Assembly: GCA_050250895.1 (NCBI GenBank)
Contig: JBFWNU010000001.1
Location: forward strand, 2,278,210-2,342,209
Origin: Vulcanimicrobiota bacterium
Lineage (GTDB): Bacteria > Vulcanimicrobiota > Xenobia > Xenobiales > JADMJV01
DNA length: 64,000 nucleotides
Reading direction: 5' to 3'
Shown: one piece after another, positions 1,517 through 64,000 of the stretch
Position numbering within the stretch: the first letter of the stretch is position 1
How the letters are laid out: the number at the start of each line of letters is the position of its first letter
Translations under genes and position numbers: made by a program
Notes under the pieces: model-generated
Database searches by the model: none
Seen by the model: only the letters and a program-made list of their open reading frames with translations
Told to the model about the DNA's origin: nothing

Positions 1517-2617
1517 ATGGATTTTTTTAGGAAGCTATTCTCTAAGGCGCCTGAGTTGGGCGCTATCGACATTGGCAGCAACATGATCAAGGTTGCCATC
1601 GTCAACGAGAAGAAGGGCGCCCCACCCGAGCTTTATCGCTATGCCCAATGCGCCACGCCGCCAATGACCATCAAAGATGGCTCCATTGTCGACGCTCAGC
1701 TGCTGGGTGAAACGATAGCAGGCCTGCTCGCTTCGAGCGACATCCAGGTCGGCAAGTTGGTGTCGGCTGTGGCCGGTCAGCAGGTCGTGATTCGTCCGAT
1801 CCAGATGACCAAGATGAAGCAGTCCGAGGTCAACCAGGCTATCAAGTTCGAGGCCGAGCGCTATCTACCATACTCGGTGACTGATGCCTCGGTGTCGGGA
1901 ATGATTATCAACGAGCATGTCGACGAGCGCAGTATGGAAGTGCTGTTGATCGCCGTACCCAACGAGATCGTCGCCAACGCGCGCGAGGTGGTCAAGATGG
2001 CCGAAGTCGAGCCCGGCCCCATCGATCTCGAACCCCTGGCCCTGTTCCGTTCACTCAAGCATTGTGTGAGCGACGAGCAGATGGCGGGGACGCTGGCCTT
2101 GATTAATCTCGGCGCGAGCTTCAGTAGTATCAATATTTTCCGCCAACGGGTCCTGCGCCATAACCGGACGATTTCCATCGCGGGCAACTCGTTCACCAAG
2201 GCGATCGGACAATCTCTCAATCTTTCTTTCGAAGAAGCCGAAAAGATCAAGAAAGAGAAGGGTGTCATCCGGGTCGAGAACAACGCCGACCCGGTGCCGC
2301 CCACGACGATGAGAATTTTCAATCTCATCGTTCCCGTCTTGACCGAGCTGGTGACCGAAATCCAGCGCTCGTTCGACTACTACCGTTCGCGCTACAAGGA
2401 CGGAGCGGTCGACCTGGTGATTCTCTCGGGCGGCACCGCAAAATTCAAGAATATTGACCAGTTTCTGGCCAACGAACTCGGCGTCAAAGCCGAGATCGCC
2501 AATCCCTTTCGAGGGATTAATGCCCAGAAAGTGCCTGGTCTCTCTCAGGCCGACCTGGCTGATATCGCGCCCAATGCTATGGTTGCTCTGGGCTTGGCCC
2601 TGAGGGAGGCTCAGTGA
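1517..2617 (+). CDS. pilM: Type IV pilus assembly ATPase-fold protein PilM
   Basis: Actin-like fold motifs (IDIGSNMIKVA…, LSGGTAKF), 366 aa; GGGAGGGGG RBS 8 nt upstream of the ATG. Confidence 0.85.
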   Translation: MDFFRKLFSKAPELGAIDIGSNMIKVAIVNEKKGAPPELYRYAQCATPPMTIKDGSIVDAQLLGETIAGLLASSDIQVGKLVSAVAGQQVVIRPIQMTKMKQSEVNQAIKFEAERYLPYSVTDASVSGMIINEHVDERSMEVLLIAVPNEIVANAREVVKMAEVEPGPIDLEPLALFRSLKHCVSDEQMAGTLALINLGASFSSINIFRQRVLRHNRTISIAGNSFTKAIGQSLNLSFEEAEKIKKEKGVIRVENNADPVPPTTMRIFNLIVPVLTELVTEIQRSFDYYRSRYKDGAVDLVILSGGTAKFKNIDQFLANELGVKAEIANPFRGINAQKVPGLSQADLADIAPNAMVALGLALREAQ

Positions 2618-5006: not shown

Positions 5007-5026
5007 TAGAACATCGTCGCCAACGA

Positions 5027-5066
5027 AGAGCGCCGTCCCCAGGGGCGGCGCTCTTTCTTTGTTTCC
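5027..5066 (+). terminator. Probable rho-independent terminator after pilQ
   Basis: GC-rich imperfect hairpin gagcgccgtcccc-a-ggggcggcgctc followed by TTTCTTTGTTT. Confidence 0.45.
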
Positions 5067-5404
5067 GGGATGGCCTTCTCGGGGCAGGCTAGAATGCTCT
5101 TCATTATACCATCCGCTGGTTTGGCTTGCAGGATCGCTTGACTTGGGAACCGAACCAAGTTCAACGACTTGAAGTTTAGTTCACGCGCGCCTGGAAAGCG
5201 ACCGTGAGTAGAACGGGCCACGACAATAGAGATAGGTCCGTGTGGCTGCTCTAGAATCAGCGTCGCGAACTGAAGAGCTACACAGTACGGGTTGGTACAA
5301 CTTGATCTCATTCGAAGGTAGGGCCTTTCACGGTCCAGCTATCCTAGTATTGTCCGACAACATTGTTCAGGGCTCCGTTATGTCCCATGGAAGGAGGTCC
5401 CACA

Positions 5405-8400
5405 ATGGCTGACGCTGTTGCTCTTCTTTCCGATGCCCAACGTTCGTACACCACCGGTGACTGGGACCAGGCGATCGACGCCTACAAGAAGGCCCTCGAG
5501 GCCGACCCGAACAATCGCGAAGCTTGCGAAAAGATGGCCAAGGTCTACGCCATTCGCGGGATGTACAAGTCGGTCATCTCCACCTATTATCAGCTGATTG
5601 ACATTCTCGAGTCGAGTGACGACCTCAATGGTGCTCTCGAGGTGGCCGATTGGGTGATGGCGCTCAAGCCCGACTCGGCTGAGGCCAGGGCCAAGCGCAT
5701 CCTGGTCTTCCAGAAGAAGGGCGACACCGAAGAGGTGGTTCGCCAGTCGCGCGGCCTGGCCAGGTTGTACATCGAACTCGGCGAGGGCGACAAATCGATC
5801 CAGCTGTTGCAGCAAGCCCAGAAGGCGGACCCTGATAATCTCGACATTGGGCTCGAACTGGCCGAGATGTATGTCAGCCATGGCCATATTCAGGACGGTG
5901 CAAATCAGTACCGCAAGGTAGCCAACGCTTTCCAGGACCAGGGCAACCTCGAGCGGGCCGCCGAGGCCTATAAGCGCATGAAGGTGATCGTGTCCGACGA
6001 CCCCGGCGTGCTGCTCACTCTGGGGCGGCTGTATGTCGACCTGCGCCGCTACAACGAGGCTGAGCAAGAGTTCCGCTCCATCTTAAGACACAATCTCAGC
6101 CACGAAGAGGCTTTGCTTGAACTGGGCCGCGTCTGTCAGCTAAAGGGTCAGTTCCGCGACGCCATTCTTGCCTTCAACAAGATCCTTTCCATCAACCCCG
6201 ACGTGGTCATGGCCAAAGAGAAGTTGGGTGAGCTCTACAAAGCTCAGGGCCTGGTGCCGGAGGCCATCAAGAATTTCCTGGCCGCGGCTCAGGCTTATCT
6301 CGAGATCGACGAGAAGGACAAAGCCATCCATCTCTATCAGATCGTTCTTGGTCTCGACACCAGCAACGCCACGGCTTGTCGCGAGTTGACCAACCTGGGT
6401 GCGCCACTCATCGGTATCGAACCCGAGCCAGAGCCCGAACCCGAGCCGGTGCCCGAACCGGTGGCGCAAGCCGAGCCAGAACCAGAGTTCGAGCCCGAAC
6501 CAGAGTTCGAGCCGGAGCCCGAGCCTGAAGTGGCGGTTATGCAACCTCCGCCGGCGCCCGCTCCGGCTGCTGGCGGCGGTCGTGCTAACGGTTTCGCCTC
6601 TTCCGAGCCAGCTATGGCTGGACCGCCGCGCGCACCCCGGGCAGGCTTGACTCCTCCTGATTCTCCCCGACCGGGGCTGACCACTCCCGAGTCGCCCCGA
6701 CCGGGCCTGACTGCTCCGGACGCGGCCGATTCGCCGAAGCGCGGACTGGTTCGTCGAGGCGGCGATGCTAGTGGCGGCTTGCGCCCAGGTCTGCGTGGCC
6801 CGGGCGGCCCCGGAGGTCCTGGTGGCAAACCTACGCTTGGACTGCGCGACCACTCCGGCCCTTTGCGCAAGGGACTCGAGCGCGAGGGTGGCGTGGGCGA
6901 CAAGCCTATGCTGATGCGCAAGCCCATGCTGGAGCGACGCTCGCCGGCTGACGAGAAGCCGACCTTGAGTCGGAACGAAGCCCCCCGGCCAACACCCGAG
7001 CCGATCAGCGCCCGCGAACCCGAACCTACCGAGTTCGAGCCGTTGGAGCCGCTGGAGCCGCTGGAGCCTTTGGAAGCGGTCGAACCGCCGGCCATCTCAC
7101 CCCCACCCGCCCTGCCTCCGCTCGAGCCCGAGCCTGAGCCCGAGCCAGAATTCGACGAGCCGATGGCCGAGGTCGAGCACGCTGAAGAAGCCGACTTCGA
7201 TGGCGAAGAAGACGAGAGTGGCGAAGAACGCGGTGGTCTCGGACAGAGCTTGCTCGGTTCACGCCAGGAGCGGCCATCTCTGCGAGGTGGCGGACTGCTA
7301 GGCGCCGGGCCGCGGCTGGGCATCAAGCCAGGTCCCTCCCTGGGAAAACCCAAGTTGGGTGGTCTCGGCGGTTTGCGCTCGACCAAACCCGAAGGGCGCC
7401 CTGGCGGTCTTTTGCGTCCCGGTCAGCCGACCGGTCGGATCGAGGATGACGAGCAAGGTGCCGAAGAATCGGCCTCTTTCGACAACCCCGAAGAAGTAAA
7501 CGGCCTCTTCTCGCAAATGCGTGACAGGGCGAAGCCTGCCGAGGCTCCTACGCCCAGTTCCGAATTGATGTCTCCCGAGGGAGGGCTTTTCGACGGCGAG
7601 AGATCTGAATCGGACAGTCTCTTTGGCGAGCCCGCTCCCGCCGGCGGACTGTTTGATTCACCGGCCCCCTCTCCGGCCCAGGATCTATTTGGCGAGCCAG
7701 AACCCGCTGGCGGGGGTCTCTTCGATTCACCCGCGCAGACCGACAAAGACGACCTGTTCGGCTCGTCCCCGGCTTCTTCTGGCGGCTTGTTCGACTCGCC
7801 GGCTGAGCCCGCAGGCGGGCTTTTCGATACCAGCCCAGCCTCTCGAGCCGCTGACAGCTTGTTCGGCGAGCCTCCGGCCCCCTCGGCCCCATCCAACGAC
7901 CTGTTCAGTGAGCCGGCGCCCGCGGCGACTGCCTCGAATGAAGACCTGTTCTCGTCGCCTCCGGCCTCCGAGCCGGCCGGCCTTTTCGAATCACCCGAAC
8001 CGGCTCCGGCCGATTCGCTCTTTAGCTCGGCTCCCCGCAATGAAGAGCCGCCGAGTCTTTTCGACTCTCGCCCGGTCGACGAGTCCTCGTTGGAACCCCC
8101 CTCGGCCGAGCCGGTAGCTCAAGACGGTTCCGATCCGTTCGGTTCCAGCCACGACCTCTTCGATCAACCGCCGCCAGCCGACGCCGACGGACTGTTCGGT
8201 GGCCAGGCCACCCAATCAGACCTCTTTGACCAGCCAGCGCCGGTTGCCGACGACCTTTTCTCGGCTCCCGCAGAGGCACCGGCGGCGGATCTGTTCTCGT
8301 CCGCCCCGGCCCCAGCCAGCGACCTGTTCAGCCAGCCGGCGGCTCCGGTCGAAGAGCCTGCGGCGCCCTCAAATGACCCGTTCCATCAGTCGGCCGCTCC

Positions 8401-11400
8401 AGCCAGCGACCTGTTCAGCCAGCCCGCAGCCCCGGCCGGGGACCTGTTCAGCCAGCCCGCGGCTCCGGCCGGCGACCTGTTCAGCCAGCCCGCCGCTCCG
8501 GCCGCCGACCTGTTCAGCCAGCCCGCGGCTCCGGCCGGCGACCTGTTCAGCCAGCCCGCCGCTCCCTCGAGCGACCCTTTCTCTCAGCCCGCCGCCAGCG
8601 ATGACCCGTTCAGTCCGGCACCTGCGTCGGCTGAGTCCGCCGAAGCGCCGGCCAGCGACCTGTTCAGTCAGAGCCCGGCCCCGGCTGGAGATCTGTTCAG
8701 TCAGACCCCTGCGCCGGCGGCCGGTGACCTCTTCGGGCAGTCTTCGGCTCCGGCGGCCGACCTGTTCAGCCAGACCCCGGCAGGTGACCTGTTCAGCCAG
8801 GCACCGGCCAACGAGCCTTTCAGCCCGGCCCCCGAGCCCGACCCGGCTCCGGCCGCAGACCTGTTCAGCCAGGCCCCGGCCGGCGACCTGTTTTCGGCTG
8901 CTCCCGTCGAGGCGCCCTCCTCGGGTCTGTTCGAACAGCCCGCCGGCGGTGACCTGTTCTCGGCTGCGCCTGCGCCGGCCCCAGTCGAGCAACCGGTGGC
9001 CAGCGAGCCCGCCCCCGCCGGGGGATTGTTTGACGAGCCTGCCCCCGAGGCCCGGTCCGAGCTGTTCAGCCCTGCTCCCGAGACCGCTCCGGCCAGCGAG
9101 GCGGCGGAAGAACTCTTCTCGCCGACCACGCCCGAAGCCCCGGCCGAAGCCGCTGCGGGCGGTTTGTTCGACGAGCCCGCCCCGGCTGCGGGTGGCTTGT
9201 TCGACCCTGCTCCCGCCGCTGGACTGTTCAGTGAGGCGACCGGTTCGTCCCAAGATAAGAAGGCGGCCGTGTCGGCGGCCTTCGAGCGCTTCCGCAAAGA
9301 CAAGCCCGGCGGCGGCTCGCAGGAGCCGGTGCCCGGAGAGGAAGAGCCCAGGCTCTCGAGCGAGATCGTGCTGCCCCCGCGTCCGCAGGACTCGCCAGAC
9401 TTCCTGCAGGCTCTTGAAGCGACCCTGCCGCGCCCGGCCTCGGCCGAGCCCGAGCCCGAGGCTGCTCCACCCAGCGTAGAGTTGGATCTCGAGCCCAGCC
9501 ATGAGTCAGCCGAGGTTCCGGTTGCTCCTCCTGCTCACGAGAGTTTCGAGATCGAAGAGCCGGTGGCCACGGCCGAGCCTGAGGTGGTGGTGCCCGAGGT
9601 GGTGCCCGAACCCGTGCCCGAGCCCGAACCCGAGCCCGAAGTGCTGGGACGACCCACCGTCTCGATGTCGATCGAGGAAGAGTCGCCAGACGAACATGTC
9701 TCCCAGGCCGACGACGTTCGCAACTCCCTGGGTGACTCTGATGTGGCGACCTCGATTAGCGTCTATCGTAAGGCTGTGGAAGAATCTCCCGACAACTTGG
9801 TGTTGCGCACCCGGCTCGCCGACATCCACATGCAGTATGGGCTGCTTGAGGACGCCGTCGTCCAGTATCGCCAGATCATCAAGCGAAACCCCGCTTCCAT
9901 CAGCCTTCGCCACCGCCTGATTCAAGCTCACCTTTGGAACGAGAGTCACGATCAGGCGGCTGCGGCCTTGATGGAGTTGGCCGAACTGCACTCCGAGCAG
10001 GGTAACCACCAGGACGCTCTCGACGCGCTCCAGACGGTGCTCAGTCTCGACCCTCATCACTTCGAGGCTCGCAAGCGTCTGGTCGACCGGTTCACGGCTC
10101 TCGATGAGGCCAAACTGGCCGCCCACCACTTGCGTCAATTGGCCGAGGCGGCCCTCACGAAGGGCAACGTGGAAGAAGCCATCAGCGCCTTCAAGCAGTT
10201 GATGGAGATCTCCGACGATCCCAGTTTCCAGGACCGGCTGGCCCAGGTCTACGAGAGCCAGGGAGACAACCAGCAGGCGTTGCTCCACTATCGTCAACTG
10301 GTGGCGCGCTACCAGAGCGAAGAGAAGTGGGAAGAGGCAGCTGCCGCCACCGAGCGTATCGCCGAGCTCGACCCCGAAGCGGTCGAGACCCGCACCGGTC
10401 TCATCGACCTCTACCAAAAGCTGGGTCTGACCGACAAGGTGATCGAGCAACAATTCGAGCTGGCTCGCTATCACCAGGTGCGCGACGAGTTACCTGAGGC
10501 GATTGCGCTCTACGAGCGAGTCGTGGCGGCGCGACCGCAGAAATACGATGCCCGCCGCCTACTGGTCGACGCCTATCTCGATTCCGGCAAGGTGCCGGCG
10601 GCGCTGCAGCAGTCCGAGGCGCTCACGGAGCACTATCTGACCACCAAAGACCACACCACCGCCATCGAACTTTACAGGCGATTGGTGGAGGCCGACTCCG
10701 AGAACGTCGAGCTACGCGAACGCCTGATCAAGTTCTACAACATGGCCGAAGACTCGACCAACGCCATGGAGCAGCTGCTGATCCTGGCTGGTCTGCACCG
10801 CGCCAACGAGCGCTACTCGCAGGCGGTGGATTGTTATCGCAGGGCGCTCGAACTTGACGAGTCGCGAGTTGACTTGCATTACGAACTGGCTCAGATCCAT
10901 GTCGACCACCTCGACGACCTCGAGTCGGCGATGCGGCAGTTCCGCCGGGTCTACGAGCTGGCCCCCACCAACCTCGAGGCCATGGAACGCTACATTCGCA
11001 TGCTGCTCGACGCCGGCAGCGCGGGCGAGGCGGGCGAGGTGCTCAATAAACTGGTCGAATCCAGTGACTCGGGCGACCAGGTTCGCGAAGCGCTTCTCTC
11101 CGAACTCAAAGCCAAGATCGAGCGCGACCCCGCCGACATGTCGGCCCGTTTCAACTATGGTGAGCTGTGCTTCCACCTGGGCGAACTTGACCTGGGTATC
11201 GAGCAGTTCCAGCAGACGCGCCGTGACCCGGCTTTCGAACTCAAGTCGTACAACATGTTAGGTCTATGCTTTGCCGAGAAGACCGGCTTCAATATGCTGG
11301 ACCTGGCCATCAAGCAGTTCCGCAAAGGTCTCGAGACCCGCGGTCACTCCGACCAGGATTATCTCGAACTCAAATACAACCTGGCGATGCTTCAGTATCG

Positions 11401-11533
11401 CAACGGAAGGCTCCAGGAGTCGCTTCAGGAGCTGAAGGATTGCTACGCCGTAGACATCGCCTTTAAGGACGTGCGCGAATGGGTGCGTCGAATCGAGGCG
11501 GAGATTGCGGGAGGGCCCCGCTTCCCGCGATAA
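5405..11533 (+). CDS. Giant TPR-repeat protein (2042 aa) with a ~1000-aa disordered PEPE / ΦLF-repeat core
   Basis: GGAAGGAGG RBS before ATG 5405 (the track ORF starts at 5363). N-terminal TPR of ~330 aa. Central low-complexity region (~nt 6410-9700) holds (EP)n tracts and about 45 DLFS/GLFD repeats. C-terminal TPR solenoid of ~600 aa. The C-terminal module is shared with the next gene. Confidence 0.85.
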   Translation: MADAVALLSDAQRSYTTGDWDQAIDAYKKALEADPNNREACEKMAKVYAIRGMYKSVISTYYQLIDILESSDDLNGALEVADWVMALKPDSAEARAKRILVFQKKGDTEEVVRQSRGLARLYIELGEGDKSIQLLQQAQKADPDNLDIGLELAEMYVSHGHIQDGANQYRKVANAFQDQGNLERAAEAYKRMKVIVSDDPGVLLTLGRLYVDLRRYNEAEQEFRSILRHNLSHEEALLELGRVCQLKGQFRDAILAFNKILSINPDVVMAKEKLGELYKAQGLVPEAIKNFLAAAQAYLEIDEKDKAIHLYQIVLGLDTSNATACRELTNLGAPLIGIEPEPEPEPEPVPEPVAQAEPEPEFEPEPEFEPEPEPEVAVMQPPPAPAPAAGGGRANGFASSEPAMAGPPRAPRAGLTPPDSPRPGLTTPESPRPGLTAPDAADSPKRGLVRRGGDASGGLRPGLRGPGGPGGPGGKPTLGLRDHSGPLRKGLEREGGVGDKPMLMRKPMLERRSPADEKPTLSRNEAPRPTPEPISAREPEPTEFEPLEPLEPLEPLEAVEPPAISPPPALPPLEPEPEPEPEFDEPMAEVEHAEEADFDGEEDESGEERGGLGQSLLGSRQERPSLRGGGLLGAGPRLGIKPGPSLGKPKLGGLGGLRSTKPEGRPGGLLRPGQPTGRIEDDEQGAEESASFDNPEEVNGLFSQMRDRAKPAEAPTPSSELMSPEGGLFDGERSESDSLFGEPAPAGGLFDSPAPSPAQDLFGEPEPAGGGLFDSPAQTDKDDLFGSSPASSGGLFDSPAEPAGGLFDTSPASRAADSLFGEPPAPSAPSNDLFSEPAPAATASNEDLFSSPPASEPAGLFESPEPAPADSLFSSAPRNEEPPSLFDSRPVDESSLEPPSAEPVAQDGSDPFGSSHDLFDQPPPADADGLFGGQATQSDLFDQPAPVADDLFSAPAEAPAADLFSSAPAPASDLFSQPAAPVEEPAAPSNDPFHQSAAPASDLFSQPAAPAGDLFSQPAAPAGDLFSQPAAPAADLFSQPAAPAGDLFSQPAAPSSDPFSQPAASDDPFSPAPASAESAEAPASDLFSQSPAPAGDLFSQTPAPAAGDLFGQSSAPAADLFSQTPAGDLFSQAPANEPFSPAPEPDPAPAADLFSQAPAGDLFSAAPVEAPSSGLFEQPAGGDLFSAAPAPAPVEQPVASEPAPAGGLFDEPAPEARSELFSPAPETAPASEAAEELFSPTTPEAPAEAAAGGLFDEPAPAAGGLFDPAPAAGLFSEATGSSQDKKAAVSAAFERFRKDKPGGGSQEPVPGEEEPRLSSEIVLPPRPQDSPDFLQALEATLPRPASAEPEPEAAPPSVELDLEPSHESAEVPVAPPAHESFEIEEPVATAEPEVVVPEVVPEPVPEPEPEPEVLGRPTVSMSIEEESPDEHVSQADDVRNSLGDSDVATSISVYRKAVEESPDNLVLRTRLADIHMQYGLLEDAVVQYRQIIKRNPASISLRHRLIQAHLWNESHDQAAAALMELAELHSEQGNHQDALDALQTVLSLDPHHFEARKRLVDRFTALDEAKLAAHHLRQLAEAALTKGNVEEAISAFKQLMEISDDPSFQDRLAQVYESQGDNQQALLHYRQLVARYQSEEKWEEAAAATERIAELDPEAVETRTGLIDLYQKLGLTDKVIEQQFELARYHQVRDELPEAIALYERVVAARPQKYDARRLLVDAYLDSGKVPAALQQSEALTEHYLTTKDHTTAIELYRRLVEADSENVELRERLIKFYNMAEDSTNAMEQLLILAGLHRANERYSQAVDCYRRALELDESRVDLHYELAQIHVDHLDDLESAMRQFRRVYELAPTNLEAMERYIRMLLDAGSAGEAGEVLNKLVESSDSGDQVREALLSELKAKIERDPADMSARFNYGELCFHLGELDLGIEQFQQTRRDPAFELKSYNMLGLCFAEKTGFNMLDLAIKQFRKGLETRGHSDQDYLELKYNLAMLQYRNGRLQESLQELKDCYAVDIAFKDVREWVRRIEAEIAGGPRFPR

Positions 11534-20722: not shown

Positions 20723-22139
20723 ACACAAAACGACCCTGGATCGCAAGATCGAACGTTTTCGAGGTATTCTCAATCGAGCCCCGGAGGATACTCTGACCGC
20801 CCTGGCTCTGGCTGAGGCTAGCTTTCGCAGGGGACTACGCCTGGAAGCGTTGACCGCCTATCAAGAGGTCAGCAAGAAGCACTCGGTGGCCGAGGCTCAT
20901 CTGGCCATCGCCCAGATCTACAGCCGTCAAGGCATGTTGGTCGAGGCGTATGAAGAGATCGCTCGGTTGCTAGAACTCGAACCCGAGAACATCGAGGCGC
21001 GATTGCTGGCCCAAGAACTCGAAGAGGTGCATCCCATTCCCGAGGGCATTCGCCTGAGCATCGGTCGGACTCCGTCGCTCGAGGCTATTCGCGAGACGCG
21101 CTTGCGCGTGAAGATTCAACGCGGCATCTTCACCCGCGAGATTCAAGAGTTGACCCGCAACGCCACCCTCGAACCGGCCGAGCCGATTCATGAATACTAC
21201 CTGCAAGAGGCCAAAAAGCGTCTGGCTCGGCTCGACGAGGTGATGGTTACCCTCGAAGAGATGGAACGTAGCGCCGAGAAGTTCTTGCCGCCCAAACCCG
21301 ACTTGATGACTCCCTTCGAGGCCAAAGAGAGCGAGCCGGTCGCACCTCTCGAGGAGCCCGCTCTGACCGATTACGCGCCCGAACCGGTGGCCTCGACCGA
21401 AACCGTTGCTGACGAGGCGGCCGTCATCCCGATCGATCCGGCACCGCTTGAAGAACTGCCTCTCATCTATGATGACGTCGGGGGCGAGAACATCTTCAGC
21501 ACCGATATTCCACCGGAATACGAAGACCTCAGCGAGATGCTCGATTTCGAAGGTGGGTCCAAGTCGGATTCTTTCGATCTTTCTCACATGTTCGACAGCT
21601 CTGAGGGGGGCGACGAGGTGGTGGTCGAGACCGACGAGCCGGTTGCGACGTTCGAGTCCGAGTTTGAGACCGAGCCCGTTTCGGAACCAGAGCCCGAACC
21701 CGAACCCGAACCCGAACCCGAAGCAGAGTCGGCTCCGGCGTTCATTCCTGACTCAGCCGCCCGGGATCAGTTCTATCTCGACATCAGCTCCAAGCTCGAA
21801 GAGCTGACCTCGACTCTTTCCAAGACCCGCGGAGTCACTTCGATCTTCGTGGTCTCGCGCCGCGGCCGCGTGGTTCAAAGCATCAGCGAAGACGCCATCA
21901 GCGCCGAGCGAGTCGGCGAGACGGTCGTCGAGGGTCTCGATTTCCTCGAGACCTTCGCCCAGGAGCCGGCCTATTGGGTGCTCGAGTGCGACGGCGGCAT
22001 CTTCATCATGCAGATCATCGACGCTCAGCACGTGGTGGTGGCCATCGGGCAAAAGGGCGCGAACTTCGGGGCTCTGCGCTTCACTCTCGACAAGAGCCGA
22101 CCCAAGTTCTCCGAACTTTTGGCCGATCTGCCGGGTTAG
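20709..22139 (+). CDS. TPR protein with acidic PE-repeat linker and C-terminal roadblock/LC7-like domain
   Basis: GGAGGA RBS, overlaps the HK stop. N-terminal TPR, (EP)n linker, C-terminal GVTSIFVVSRRGRVVQSI…YWVLECDGGIFIMQIIDAQHVVVAIG (roadblock-like). Confidence 0.75.
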   Translation: MLKSEHKTTLDRKIERFRGILNRAPEDTLTALALAEASFRRGLRLEALTAYQEVSKKHSVAEAHLAIAQIYSRQGMLVEAYEEIARLLELEPENIEARLLAQELEEVHPIPEGIRLSIGRTPSLEAIRETRLRVKIQRGIFTREIQELTRNATLEPAEPIHEYYLQEAKKRLARLDEVMVTLEEMERSAEKFLPPKPDLMTPFEAKESEPVAPLEEPALTDYAPEPVASTETVADEAAVIPIDPAPLEELPLIYDDVGGENIFSTDIPPEYEDLSEMLDFEGGSKSDSFDLSHMFDSSEGGDEVVVETDEPVATFESEFETEPVSEPEPEPEPEPEPEAESAPAFIPDSAARDQFYLDISSKLEELTSTLSKTRGVTSIFVVSRRGRVVQSISEDAISAERVGETVVEGLDFLETFAQEPAYWVLECDGGIFIMQIIDAQHVVVAIGQKGANFGALRFTLDKSRPKFSELLADLPG

Positions 22140-45680: not shown

Positions 45681-46229
45681 GTGAGTTTGAACAGGGGATT
45701 GAGTGCCGCGCTCTTGGCTGGAATGCTGTTTCTAGCTGGTTGCGCGCCCGCAGCGCCCGTGCACCCCAGTGCCGACAAAGGCGGGCCCGACACGCCTCTG
45801 CCGAAGAAGACCCCGGTCGAGGTGGCCTCTTCGGACCAGGGTGATTCGAACGGCGGCCCCGCTGCCACCGGCCCCATGGCCGAAGATCTGGCCAACGCCG
45901 ATGGCATGGCTGGCTTCGAAGAGGTGATGAAGATGACCGCGCCGTCTGCCAGCAACCTGGATACGGGGAAGAATCTCTTTGCTCAGAACTGTGCGACCTG
46001 CCACGGCGCCTCGGGTAAAGGAGACGGTAAGGCCGGCGCAGCGCTCGACCCACCGCCCCGCAACCTGACTGTCCCCGGCGAATACAAGTACGGCCACATG
46101 GAGCTGGCCACTTTTCGGACTATCAAGTACGGCGTCGAGGGCTCTGGCATGACCGGTTGGGACGGTCGCATGACCGACGACGAGACGTGGGCGGTTGTCC
46201 ACTACGTCATGAGCCTCCAGAAAGGATAA
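45681..46229 (+). CDS. Lipoprotein c-type cytochrome (class I)
   Basis: GTG with GAAGGAG RBS, lipobox LAGC, CATCH heme site, GMTGW Met-ligand region. Confidence 0.85.
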   Translation: MSLNRGLSAALLAGMLFLAGCAPAAPVHPSADKGGPDTPLPKKTPVEVASSDQGDSNGGPAATGPMAEDLANADGMAGFEEVMKMTAPSASNLDTGKNLFAQNCATCHGASGKGDGKAGAALDPPPRNLTVPGEYKYGHMELATFRTIKYGVEGSGMTGWDGRMTDDETWAVVHYVMSLQKG

Positions 46230-46241
46230 GGAAGATACACA

Positions 46242-46808
46242 ATGCGAAATCATCGCGTTACCACCTGGCTCGGTTTGCTCGTGGCCTCTCAGTTGTTTCT
46301 GACCGGCTGCCCGTCTACCCCGCCCAGCGAAACACCCACTACTCCAGCCCCGGCTACCACTGCAGCCCCGGCTGAAACCCCTCCCGCGGAAGGAGCCAAG
46401 ACCCTGCCCGAGGCACAGGTCGTGGCTGCCGACATGGAGAAGGCCAAAGAAGACTTCTCTGCTGCCGAAGGCACCACCGGTGCCGAGGAAGTGGCGGCCT
46501 TGACCGAGATTCCGGCCGCTTCGGCCGAGACCGTGGCCAAAGGCAAAGAGCTCTTCCAGACCAACTGCACCACCTGCCACGGCGACGACGCGGCGGGTAA
46601 CGGCCCGGCCGGCGCTGCGCTTGACCCGCCGCCCCGCAACCTGACCTTGCCCGGCGAGTACAAGTACGGCCATCTCGATTTGGCTGTGTACCGTACCGTC
46701 AAGTACGGTTCTGATGGCACCGGAATGGTCGGCTGGGACGGCCGCATGTCCGAAGACGAAATGTGGGCCGTGGTCCACTACGTCCGGGGGATTCAGAAAG
46801 AGGGCTAA
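46242..46808 (+). CDS. Lipoprotein c-type cytochrome (class I), tandem paralog
   Basis: Lipobox LTGC, CTTCH, GMVGW. Same domain layout as the preceding gene, with a Pro/Thr/Ala-rich linker. Confidence 0.85.
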   Translation: MRNHRVTTWLGLLVASQLFLTGCPSTPPSETPTTPAPATTAAPAETPPAEGAKTLPEAQVVAADMEKAKEDFSAAEGTTGAEEVAALTEIPAASAETVAKGKELFQTNCTTCHGDDAAGNGPAGAALDPPPRNLTLPGEYKYGHLDLAVYRTVKYGSDGTGMVGWDGRMSEDEMWAVVHYVRGIQKEG

Positions 46809-60887: not shown

Positions 60888-61754
60888 ATGCCGAAGCTGT
60901 GGATCTTTCTGCCGGCCTTCAACGAGGAGCAGGCCCTGCCCAATCTCTTGCCCCGCATCGACGAGACCATGCGCGAGCACGGCTATGATTACGAGATGGT
61001 GGTGGTCGACGACGGCAGCAACGACAACACCCCGGCCATCCTGGCCGAGTTCGAGGGCAAGCTGCCGCTGCAGGTGGTGCGCCACGTGCTCAATCGCGGC
61101 CTGGGCGAGACCGAGCGCGACGGATTCGAGCATGTGGCCATGCAGTGCCACCCCGACGACATCGTGGTGCGGGTCGAAGGCGACGACACCCACGGCCCCC
61201 AGTACATCCTCGACCTCTTGGCCAAGCTCGAGCAGGGCTATGACGTGGTCAACACCTCGCGCTTTCAGCCCGGCGGCGGCCAGCGCGGGGTCAGCGCCTA
61301 TCGCGGCTTCATCAGCCGGGCGGCCAACATGTTCATGGGCTTCGTGTTTCGCATCCCCGGCACCCGTGACTACAGCTGTGGCTTTCGCGCCTACCGCGGC
61401 AAAGTGCTAAAAGACGCCGTGCGGGTCTTCGGCAACAACTTCATCCAGCTGCGCGGGCTGGGCTTCACCTCGACCTTGGAGACCATCGTCAAGTTGCACC
61501 TGCTCGGCTGCCGCTTCGCCGAGGTGCCTTTCATGCTGCGCTACGACCTCAAACTGGGCCCCAGCAAGATGGTCTCGAGCGTGACCACCGTCGGCTATCT
61601 CTTGATGGGCCTGCTCTACTGGTGGCCGTTTGGCGGCTGGCTCGACCAATACCGCGGCCTGGCCGAGGCTTATCGTGAAGACCCCGAAGCGGCCGTACGG
61701 CGCTTCGAGGGGCGGGCGCTGCCGGCGCCTACGGCGGGTAAGCTGGCGCCTTAG
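60888..61754 (+). CDS. Family-2 glycosyltransferase (polyprenyl-phosphate sugar transferase-like)
   Basis: IFLPAFNEE…VVVDDGSNDNT…  DxD-type GT2 motifs. Internal ATG 60888 (the track ORF starts at 60804). Confidence 0.85.
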   Translation: MPKLWIFLPAFNEEQALPNLLPRIDETMREHGYDYEMVVVDDGSNDNTPAILAEFEGKLPLQVVRHVLNRGLGETERDGFEHVAMQCHPDDIVVRVEGDDTHGPQYILDLLAKLEQGYDVVNTSRFQPGGGQRGVSAYRGFISRAANMFMGFVFRIPGTRDYSCGFRAYRGKVLKDAVRVFGNNFIQLRGLGFTSTLETIVKLHLLGCRFAEVPFMLRYDLKLGPSKMVSSVTTVGYLLMGLLYWWPFGGWLDQYRGLAEAYREDPEAAVRRFEGRALPAPTAGKLAP

Positions 61755-63530
61755 TCCTGGCTTGGTGGGCGCTTTTAGGTCACCGCGGAGATCCGCGGGG
61801 CGCGCGGAGTTGGGTGCATTTGAGTCGGATGGAGCACGCTCTGGCGTTGAGGCCCGGAGAGGGCTGTGCGGGGTGGGGCCTGGGCGGGAGGTCGCGGTTG
61901 TGCGCCGTACACTCGCCGAACCGGGTCGTGCGGCGCACACTTGCGCCGCACATCGACGAAACCCGGCTGTACGGCGCACATTCGGCGGGTCCAGCGTTCG
62001 GCGAGCCGAGGTTTAGTCGAGGTTGCCCGCCGAGAGACGCTTCAGGAACCCTTTTGGCTTCGGGATTTCGCCCACTCCGGGTGGGGCCAAGGCTGGCCGG
62101 GCGGTCGGGGCTGGCGATCGCCCACTCCGGCCGGGGCTGGCGATCGCCCACTCCGGCTGGGGGATTTCGCCCACTCCGGGTGGGGCCAGGATGGCTGGGC
62201 GGCCCGGGCTGGCGATCGCCCACTCCGGCTGGGGGATTTCGCCCACTCCGGGTGGGGCCAGGATGGCTGGGCGGCCCGGGCTGGCGATCGCCCACTCCAG
62301 CTGGGGGATTTCGCCCACTCCGGGTGGGGCCAAGGCTGGCCGGGCGGCCGGGGCTGGCGATCGCCCACTCCGGCTGGGGGATTTCGCCCACTCCGGGTGG
62401 GGCCAAGGCTGGCCGGACGGCCGAGAGCTGGCCGCTGCCCACCCCGCCGCGCCTACGGCGGGTAAGCTGGCGCCCTAGCCCTGGCTTGGTGGGCGCTTTT
62501 TAGGTCACCGCGGAGATACGCGGGGCGCGCGGAGTTGGGTGCATTTGAGTCGGATGGAGCACGCTCTGGCGTTGAGGCCCGGAGAGGGCTGTGCGGGTGG
62601 GGGCCTGGGCGGGCGGTCGCGGTTGTGCGCCGTACACTCGCCGAACCGGGTCGTGCGGCGCACACTTGCGCCGCACATCGACGAAACCCGGCTGTACGGC
62701 GCACATTCGGCGGGTCCAGCGTTCGGCGAGCCGAGGTTTAGTCGAGGTTGCCCGCCGAGCTTCAGGAACTCTTCTGCCTTCGGGATTTCGCCCACTCCGG
62801 GTGGGGCCAAGGCTGGGCGGACGGCTGGGGCTGGCGCTCGCCCCCTCCGGCTGGGGGATTTCGCCCACTCCGGGTGGGGCCAAGGCTGGGCGGACGGCTG
62901 GGGCTGGCGATCGCCCACTCCAGCTGGGGGATTTCGCCCACTCCGGGTGGGGCCAAGGCTGGCCGGGCGGCCGGGGCTGGCGATCGCCCACTCCGGCTGG
63001 GGGATTTCGCGCACTCCGGGTGGGGCCAGGATGGCTGGGCGGCCCGGGCTGGCGATCGCCCACTCCGGCTGGGGGATTTCGCCCACTCCGGGTGGGGCCA
63101 AGGCTGGGCGGGCGGTCGGGGCTGGCGATCGCCCACTCCGGCTGGGGGACCACTCCGGGTGGGGCCAAGGCTGGGCGGACGGCTGAGAGCTGGCCGCTGC
63201 CCACCCCGCCGCGCCTACGGCGGGTAAGCTGGCGCCCTAGTCCTGGCTTGGTGGGCGCTTTTTAGGTCACCGCGGAGATACGCGGGGCGCGCGGAGTTGG
63301 GTGCATTTGAGTCGGATGGAGCACGCTCTGGCGTTGAGGCCCGGAGAGGGCTGTGCGGGGTGGGGCCTGGGCGGGCGGTCGCGGTTGTGCGCCGTACACT
63401 CGCCGAACCGGGTCGTGCGGCGCACACTTGCGCCGCACATCGACGAAACCCGGCTGTACGGCGCACATTCGGCGGGTCCAGCGTTCGGCGAGCCGAGGTT
63501 TAGTCGAGGTTGCCCGCCGAGAGACGCTCC
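61727..63530. repeat. Tandem triplication (~723 + ~762 + ~320 bp partial) containing nested inverted repeats and arrays of a 72-bp mini-repeat with GCGATCGC cores
   Basis: The last ~27 nt of the GT gene (gcgcctacggcgggtaagctggcgccYtag) recur at ~61727, ~62450 and ~63212. Each copy carries a hairpin-rich ~300-bp unique part and about 5 tandem 72-bp units (gggatttcgcccactccgggtggggcc…ggctggcgatcgcccactccggctgg). Confidence 0.85.
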
Positions 63531-64000
63531 AGGAACTCTTCTGGCGAGTTGACTTCGGCCGCGGCGACGATGGCCGAAGAGAGCTGGGTGTCGTCTTTTA
63601 GCGCCTCGATGGCTTTTCGAAGGTCGGGTGGAGTTGGTCCAAATCGCTTCTCGAGAATCTTGAAGACTGATTCGCGCATTGCCTGACGGCCCTGTTCGAG
63701 CCCCTCTTCCCGACCTTGCTCCAGACCGAGTTCGCGACCTTGCTCCAGACCGAGTTCGCGACCCTGCTCCAGGCCAAGTTCACGACCTTGCTCGAGGCCC
63801 TGTTCAAGCCCTCGCTCGAACCAGCTGTTGGTGACTTTCATGACTGCCTCCCTTTCTTGAGGAGCGATACTCTCTATTTCGGCGGAGAATTCTTGTTCTT
63901 CCTGCGGATTGAGTCGTAGGTATTGTTCTACGAAGTGGGCTACGTAGAAAGAGCGAGCTTTGTCGAGATTGAGGTTGGCTAGGAGCCTCAGACAGGCCAG
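63500..64000 (-). CDS. Rpn-family / DUF4351-like protein, C-terminal part (5' end outside the window)
   Basis: The minus-strand frame is open from the window edge to a stop at ~63500 (…LLANLNLDKARSFYVAHFVEQYLRLNPQEEQEFSAEIESIAPQEREAVMKVTNSWFERGLEQGLEQGRELGLEQGRELG…). The listed 113-aa ORF is only its tail from an internal Met. Confidence 0.55.
   Translation of the reverse strand: MACLRLLANLNLDKARSFYVAHFVEQYLRLNPQEEQEFSAEIESIAPQEREAVMKVTNSWFERGLEQGLEQGRELGLEQGRELGLEQGRELGLEQGREEGLEQGRQAMRESVFKILEKRFGPTPPDLRKAIEALKDDTQLSSAIVAAAEVNSPEEFLERLSAGNLD

Follow-up and report, generated by a model that had tools for sequence, protein, structure and literature searches.

The 64-kb stretch of Vulcanimicrobiota DNA examined in this work, referred to throughout as the window, carries a GC-rich hairpin element, present in three copies, between a glycosyltransferase gene and the convergently oriented gene of an Rpn (YhgA-like) nuclease. 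The original prediction for this region had noted four occurrences of a 13-bp motif in each copy, in alternating orientation, and had read them as a possible structured RNA or terminator, or as a possible operator array for a dimeric protein such as the Rpn-like nuclease. The results presented below demonstrate that the feature is real and that its outline was correctly described, but that this first interpretation overreached. The 12 motif sites arise from one unit that was doubled and then tripled through serial local duplication, and not from conservation, and comparison with a sister strain places the hairpin on a lineage-specific indel. The earlier reading had missed that nested duplications on this strain-specific indel account for the number of motifs. 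The locus is organized as follows:

60888-61754, plus strand: glycosyltransferase family-2 gene (PF00535, 74.9 bits), its product 100% identical to a protein from a Vulcanimicrobiota metagenome-assembled genome (MAG); convergent with rpn
61726-62058: block A, copy 1, running from the final ~29 nt of the glycosyltransferase gene through the hairpin-bearing intergenic region to the final ~45 nt of rpn
61783-61798: small palindrome CCGCGGAGATCCGCGG, imperfect in copies 2 and 3
61899-61980: hairpin copy 1, with 13-mers at 61899-61911, 61927-61939, 61940-61952 and 61968-61980, 41-nt units at 61899-61939 and 61940-61980, and the apical loop CACT at 61938-61941
62060-62449: minisatellite B1, 72/73-nt unit, each unit with two TCGCCCACTCCGG and one GCGATCGC
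62450-62778: block A, copy 2, with a 5-nt deletion in the rpn-tail remnant
62624-62705: hairpin copy 2, with the same sequence as copy 1 and 13-mers starting at 62624, 62652, 62665 and 62693
62782-63183: minisatellite B2, period 73, 5.6 copies, with the same make-up of TCGCCCACTCCGG and GCGATCGC per unit
63212-63545: block A, copy 3, running on into the intact rpn gene
63386-63467: hairpin copy 3, identical in sequence to copies 1 and 2, with 13-mers starting at 63386, 63414, 63427 and 63455
63500-64000, minus strand: 3' part of rpn, a YhgA-like nuclease gene that extends beyond the window edge (complete product: P0121)

The predicted placement of the hairpin, in the 3' flank of rpn and downstream of the glycosyltransferase gene, was confirmed by the distances involved: the rpn stop codon is followed after 32 nt by copy 3, and that of the glycosyltransferase gene after 144 nt by copy 1. 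We scanned the window for the 13-mer TGTGCGCCGYACA with at most two mismatches, using dinucleotide shuffles as controls, and obtained 23 matches, compared to 3.35 ± 1.87 in the shuffled sequences. The scan recovered the four 13-mers in each of the three copies exactly at their predicted positions, and outside the locus it returned just two matches, with two mismatches each, both at chance level. Each 13-mer is itself a near-palindrome, TGTGCG-S-CGCACA, that matches on both strands (within the 41-bp unit, the arm consensus can also be written TGTGCG-S-CGYACA). The predicted alternation of orientation therefore depends solely on the middle base of each site and on one or two positions that break the symmetry.

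Arm complementarity and folding together bear out the proposed two-stem hairpin of ~90 nt, in which site 1 pairs with site 4 and site 2 with site 3. Sites 1 and 4 are complementary at 13/13 positions and sites 2 and 3 form 10 contiguous pairs (the other arm complementarities are 11/13 and 10/13), yielding a hairpin of ~82 nt whose outer and inner stems measure 13 and 10 bp, respectively, and whose loop is CACU. RNA folding, the check suggested at the outset, gave a very stable stem-loop with significant z-scores on both strands: for a 111-nt RNA, we obtained -64.5 kcal/mol (z = -4.9) on the plus strand and -61.7 kcal/mol (z = -3.85) on the minus strand, and the corresponding 101-nt single-stranded DNA (ssDNA) folded at -39.6 kcal/mol (z = -5.6). 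All stem pairs are Watson-Crick, and neither strand is favoured.

The nested inverted repeat is real, but the same sequence can equally well be viewed as a tandem doubling: Tandem Repeats Finder detects a 41-nt unit, in which two 13-nt arms enclose a 15-nt loop, twice, head to tail, with 80% identity. The two descriptions draw on different parts of the unit, with the arms favouring an inverted arrangement (13/13, and 10 contiguous pairs) and the loops and overall identity favouring a direct one. Sites 1 and 3, like sites 2 and 4, are spaced 41 bp apart, or approximately four helical turns. At -53.8 kcal/mol, the nested 82-nt hairpin gains ~7 kcal/mol in stability over a pair of adjacent hairpins (-46.8 kcal/mol). 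The two units also present a paired difference, with T or C at position 10 of sites 1 and 3 and A or G at position 4 of sites 4 and 2; the nested form keeps these pairs Watson-Crick, whereas the adjacent form would produce T·G and C·A. This single paired difference is the sole hint of constraint on the hairpin. Because the hairpin sequence is identical in all three copies, the 12 sites provide no independent evidence of constraint.

The hairpin copies are embedded in a larger repeat hierarchy. Block A, of ~330 bp, is present three times at spacings of 725 and 762 bp, with single-nucleotide polymorphisms (SNPs) and indels between copies, and blocks 1 and 2 contain remnants of the rpn tail. The blocks are separated by the two minisatellites, which together contain 20 copies of TCGCCCACTCCGG and carry different variants. 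Given that their 72/73-nt period alternates and is not a multiple of 3, the minisatellites are non-coding, and a coding repeat region was ruled out. The enrichment in GCGATCGC is confined to the minisatellites, and a cyanobacterial HIP1 signature was discarded on these grounds. None of ten translated open reading frames (ORFs) from the repeat region was found in the protein collection; a word-index search with the 199-aa plus-strand ORF yielded no match, and a full HMMER search with the 220-aa minus-strand ORF returned just two unrelated low-complexity proteins. Patterns for the minisatellite and for the left part of the segment carrying hairpin copy 1 had no match in viral contigs, and alignment of the minisatellite and hairpin against the rpn and glycosyltransferase tails gave no significant support for a local origin. 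The left part of that segment shows a marginal similarity of ~29 nt to the minisatellite unit, reached by 3 of 300 shuffles, which hints that the two may be related.

The sole close comparator for this region is L017, a 557-nt metagenome contig from the European Nucleotide Archive (ENA). It presents the same convergent glycosyltransferase/rpn pair, but with an intergenic region of only 62 nt, and it contains neither the block duplication nor the minisatellite. The C-terminal region of its Rpn is 88% identical to that in the window, with nearly all of the divergence residing in an 8-aa indel (two 4-aa repeats) for which L017 is the shorter. The window has a 193-nt segment at 61812-62004, encompassing hairpin copy 1 near its right end, where L017 has the 9 nt AGCGCGCGG, and the flanks align on both sides. 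Inspection of the segment junctions (GAGTT/GGGTGC... on the left and ...TTCGGCGA/GCCGAGG on the right, with the junction at the slash) revealed no terminal inverted repeats (TIRs) and no target-site duplication (TSD). Since the sister strain retains both flanking genes without the segment, the hairpin is dispensable for those genes there. The small palindrome CCGCGGAGATCCGCGG, pointed out in the original prediction, is present in copy 1, but is imperfect in the other two copies; L017 has CCGCGGAGACACGCGG in its place, and this small CCGCGG palindrome belongs to the shared ancestral spacer. Exact look-ups with the glycosyltransferase and a GNAT protein returned the same three contigs, the next glycosyltransferase homologues being at most 70% identical, and the accessible data contained no further close relatives.

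To put the element in a broader context, we searched for relatives in sequence and structure collections. Scanning 185,579 species-representative genomes with the pattern TGCGCCGYACA-N10-22-GYRCGGCGCACA returned 15 single, chance-like matches that do not resemble the element outside the required arms. Five of the 15 correspond to an alphaproteobacterial element with coincidentally similar arms: in five alphaproteobacterial MAG contigs (L002, L003, L004, L006 and L009), a conserved intergenic palindromic element, GTGCGCCGCACAAAAATCNCCCTTGTAAATGGTGCGGCGCACA followed by TGCGAGAGCGATCTCGCAGCCCTCCTTTGGG, was observed that is unrelated to the window. A three-site pattern had a single match in Joint Genome Institute (JGI) metagenomes, located within a coding VRRT repeat, and blastn searches against plasmids and phages were negative. 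Outside the locus, no copy of the element was detected in the window's 64 kb, and neither the species-representative genomes nor the metagenomes yielded one. A covariance model of the 41-nt unit, run unfiltered over the window, recovered the six units and one generic terminator hairpin (5025-5056). In viral contigs, the hairpin pattern identified one analogue that is not homologous, on the high-GC contig L020, where three perfect TGTGCGSCGCACA palindromes at 1977-2045 and a TGTGCGCGCACA variant at ~2087 lie directly upstream of an ORF encoding a Xis/MerR-like helix-turn-helix (HTH) protein (1715-1975, minus strand); from their arrangement, these palindromes look like an operator cluster. Finally, five rpn/DUF4351 loci (L017, L018, L022, L023 and L026) contained neither a downstream inverted repeat of at least 9 nt nor the motif, indicating that the hairpin is not a feature of the gene family.

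Comparison with known classes of elements narrowed the range of interpretations. In Rfam, no family reached the gathering score anywhere in the window, and when 61700-62100 and 62000-63600 were scanned by E-value, all that resulted was plant miRNA-precursor noise, the best match scoring 21.8 bits where the gathering score is 88; assignment to an Rfam RNA family was rejected accordingly. A promoter and terminator scan of 61600-63700 detected 0 terminator-like and no promoter-like sites, and no U-tract follows the stem (CAUUCGGCGGG on the plus strand, CAACCGCGACC on the minus strand). Like intrinsic bidirectional terminators, the element is a GC-rich stem-loop between convergent genes; unlike them, it has no A- or U-tract on either side and its stem is far longer than usual, and we discarded the intrinsic terminator as a stem-loop without an adjacent U-tract. 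Classical intrinsic terminators are employed by this genome, but look different from the hairpin element: canonical bidirectional hairpins flanked by A-tracts and T-tracts lie at 157-190 and 5026-5055. Of the proposal of a structured RNA or terminator, a weak form survives: the stem-loop is very stable, but it has no U-tract after it on either strand, no hit in the terminator scan, only noise in Rfam and no relatives in the collections searched.

Several other candidate classes were likewise set aside. Miniature inverted-repeat transposable elements (MITEs) were rejected on the lack of TIRs and TSDs at the junctions with L017. For an integron attC site, GTTGGGT at the left junction fits GTTRRRY, but no partner site occurs at the other end or at the hairpin ends, and the intervening DNA is a non-coding minisatellite with no cassettes. 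A retron msd was dismissed on the lack of a reverse transcriptase and of an a1/a2 arrangement, and CRISPR on the identity of the would-be spacers. Transcription-factor operators were rejected as a class because the sites, while palindromic, lie between convergent 3' ends, with no promoter, and are absent from the orthologous spacer of L017. The closest structural counterparts are repetitive extragenic palindromic (REP) sequences, bacterial interspersed mosaic elements (BIMEs) and REP doublets forming hairpins (REPINs): as in REP/BIME/REPIN doublets, two 41-nt palindromic units form an 82-nt intergenic hairpin.

Taken together, we interpret the element, with confidence evenly balanced for and against, as a lineage-specific, non-coding extragenic palindrome of REP/REPIN-like type that either is mobile or owes its origin to slippage or template switching. 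A hairpin unit of ~41 bp is doubled head to tail on the 193-nt segment, and this segment was later triplicated as part of the entire convergent intergenic region, the copies being separated by the 72/73-nt minisatellites. The segment itself may have arrived by transposition, or may have arisen by local slippage or template switching in a GC-rich, repeat-prone spacer. Any activity of the element would most likely take one of two forms. As RNA, it would constitute a highly stable stem-loop close to where the rpn and glycosyltransferase transcripts end, which might slow 3' exonucleases and possibly read-through. As DNA, it would be a hairpin- and cruciform-prone sequence favouring slippage, template switching and unequal recombination, a property that fits the nested tandem duplications of 41 nt, then 72/73 nt and then 725-762 bp. 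Template switching is a known source of long hairpin stems and is also known to render such stems perfect (PMC8794818, PMC7202029).

The resemblance to REPINs and BIMEs extends to several traits. Both are extragenic and often lie between convergent genes, both comprise short imperfect palindromes that pair into a hairpin of ~80-100 nt in ssDNA or RNA, and both present near-identical doublets in tandem, flanks included, with no TIRs or target duplications; tandem arrays of near-identical hairpin doublets that include their flanks are a documented higher-order form of REPINs (Bertels & Rainey 2011, PMC3116915). The element differs from REPINs in that neither the remaining 61.7 kb of the window nor the public collections yielded dispersed copies, in that its units are direct by overall identity, and in the far greater length of the repeated block (725-762 bp), which also contains a minisatellite; furthermore, no RAYT gene turned up here, although the window ORFs were not scanned for PF01797. 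Since many dispersed copies together with a RAYT gene constitute the defining property of REPINs, we propose that the element works like a REP/REPIN and do not claim that it is one. Template-switch quasi-palindromes share with it the perfect stems (13/13 and 10/10), the paired 'compensatory' difference and a slippage-rich setting, and they need no functional selection; they differ in that the events at this locus cannot be reconstructed from a single outgroup that lacks the whole segment.

A number of observations weigh against this interpretation. No second dispersed copy was found in the window or the collections, and the element is therefore at most a candidate member of a mobile REP/REPIN family. 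The 193-nt segment has no TIR or TSD, and it may represent an insertion in the window lineage or a deletion in the sister lineage, a comparison that rests on one comparator sequence. Lastly, the compensatory difference in the sense of the nested form could reflect selection for the long hairpin, and hence a real function; template switching between the arms of a quasi-palindrome is known, however, to yield such 'compensatory' changes without selection (PMC8794818, PMC7202029).

Among the alternatives, the one that fares best is a non-autonomous mobile element of the REPIN, palindrome-associated transposable element (PATE) or MITE type, in which the 193-nt segment would have been inserted by a transposase encoded elsewhere, such as a RAYT or an IS200/IS605 Y1 enzyme. 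The clean presence/absence pattern with respect to the sister contig and the extragenic doublet-hairpin architecture between convergent genes both suit this account, the absence of TIRs and TSDs is compatible with single-strand Y1-type transposition, and REPIN tandem clusters that include flanks offer a precedent. Such an element, however, is expected to have other copies elsewhere in the 3.95-Mb genome, and none was found in 61.7 kb of that same genome; nor was a related copy found in the 185,579 species-representative genomes, JGI metagenomes or viral contigs. The units are direct (80%) and not inverted by overall identity, and no transposase was noticed nearby, with the same limit regarding PF01797. 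We therefore regard this mobile-element account as possible but unlikely.

An operator or iteron array, with four 13-bp palindromes per block (12 in total) bound by a dimeric protein, possibly an RpnS/DUF4351 antitoxin-like domain or another regulator, is unlikely. Each site is indeed a near-perfect palindrome, the 41-bp phasing of sites 1/3 and 2/4 would place them approximately four helical turns apart, and the unrelated viral contig L020, where this palindrome occurs in three perfect copies next to a Xis-like HTH gene, makes such a motif plausible as an operator. The likeness to L020 is restricted to the 13-bp palindrome consensus and the clustering of several copies: its sites lie upstream of the HTH gene, whereas those in the window lie downstream of both genes, and no similarity extends beyond the motif. 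The window sites are located between convergent 3' ends with no promoter-like site and no nearby regulator, the sister strain has both genes and no sites, the perfect 13/13 complementarity of the distant sites 1 and 4 is not needed for an operator, and duplication accounts for site multiplicity. The more specific proposal of an operator for the Rpn-like nuclease is unsupported on the same positional and sister-strain grounds, and on the absence of the sites at the five rpn/DUF4351 loci.

We also considered it improbable that the hairpin acts as a functional cis-acting or small RNA, be it a small RNA derived from a 3' untranslated region, an element that governs processing or stability, or a regulator acting antisense to the rpn toxin/antitoxin gene. 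The very stable fold and its significant z-scores, the one compensatory difference favouring the nested helix and the location 32 nt past the rpn stop codon are consistent with this possibility, but Rfam yields only miRNA-like hairpin noise and nothing at gathering score, no homologue was identified in the collections searched and the sister strain lacks the hairpin. The stem, moreover, consists entirely of Watson-Crick pairs with no strand asymmetry, and the region provides neither a promoter nor a U-tract terminator. A conserved structured-RNA role is thus as unsupported as an operator role.

It is very unlikely that the hairpin and the hierarchical repeats represent a hypervariable 3' flank made by the adjacent Rpn nuclease, with this PD-(D/E)XK enzyme cutting the extruded hairpin or cruciform as its substrate and causing RecA-independent duplication of its own 3' flank. 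The repeats abut the 3' end of rpn, blocks 1 and 2 hold rpn-tail remnants and the rpn repeat tract differs by 8 aa from that of the sister strain; in addition, it has been speculated that partial rpn copies downstream may stem from recombination started by RpnL itself (Zhong et al., PMC10400941). This support is purely circumstantial, the other rpn loci examined have no such repeats, and slippage and unequal crossing-over explain the tandem repeats without Rpn.

Lastly, an assembly artefact, in which only one copy would exist and the three-copy arrangement would be false, is unlikely in the extreme, for while the structure is known from a single MAG contig and short-read assembly breaks at the locus, SNPs and indels separate the copies, the two arrays carry different variants, and the short-read contig L016 (Logan, SRR27751816), which encodes an identical glycosyltransferase, ends at window position 61823, exactly 30 nt past the copy-1-specific base 61793 and precisely where a k=31 graph would branch given a second left context, which supports the block being truly multi-copy.

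As found, the element is one more orphan extragenic palindrome from a poorly sampled phylum, the Vulcanimicrobiota, and carries little weight as such. Its apparent 12-fold motif enrichment is a duplication effect, and it provides a clean example of how a small hairpin, through nested tandem duplication, can pass for an 'operator array' or a 'structured RNA'. It also flags the rapid evolution of the intergenic region beside rpn, a toxin/antitoxin defence gene whose repeat tract likewise varies between sister strains. Should the hairpin prove to be dispersed in the full genome, it would represent a new REPIN-like family outside the Proteobacteria and Cyanobacteria; should Rpn cut the hairpin, it would be a natural substrate for the 'recombination-promoting' activity and a source of downstream partial rpn copies.

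The adjacent rpn gene was characterized from its full product. The 166 Rpn residues encoded in the window are identical to the C-terminus of P0121 (342 aa), annotated at NCBI as an Rpn family protein on the 3.95-Mb contig of a Vulcanimicrobiota MAG. P0121 matches PF04754 (the N-terminal Transposase_31 domain) with 26.2 bits against a cut-off of 21, and its match to DUF4351 is sub-threshold. It combines this N-terminal domain with a C-terminal RpnS/DUF4351-like region containing 4-aa repeats, as in members of the Rpn family (PF04754), an assignment that concerns the neighbouring gene and not the hairpin. Within rpn, an in-frame internal ATG (63839-63841), preceded by GGGAGG, lies just upstream of a 24-nt (GLEQ/GREL) tandem tract (63707-63817). 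An intragenic RpnS antitoxin with hypervariable 4-aa repeats has been described (PMC10400941), and the internal ATG and the variation in 4-aa repeats seen here match that description, pointing to a putative RpnS-like product of 113 aa.

Repeats were also observed in other parts of the window. A 2056-aa ORF on the plus strand (5363-11533) contains long runs of 33-nt repeats with a DLFSQP-type motif (~7750-9200), as well as PE-rich repeats in common with 21620-21730. A 201-nt direct repeat with 76% identity occurs at 46024-46224 and 46600-46800, its two copies located 576 bp apart.

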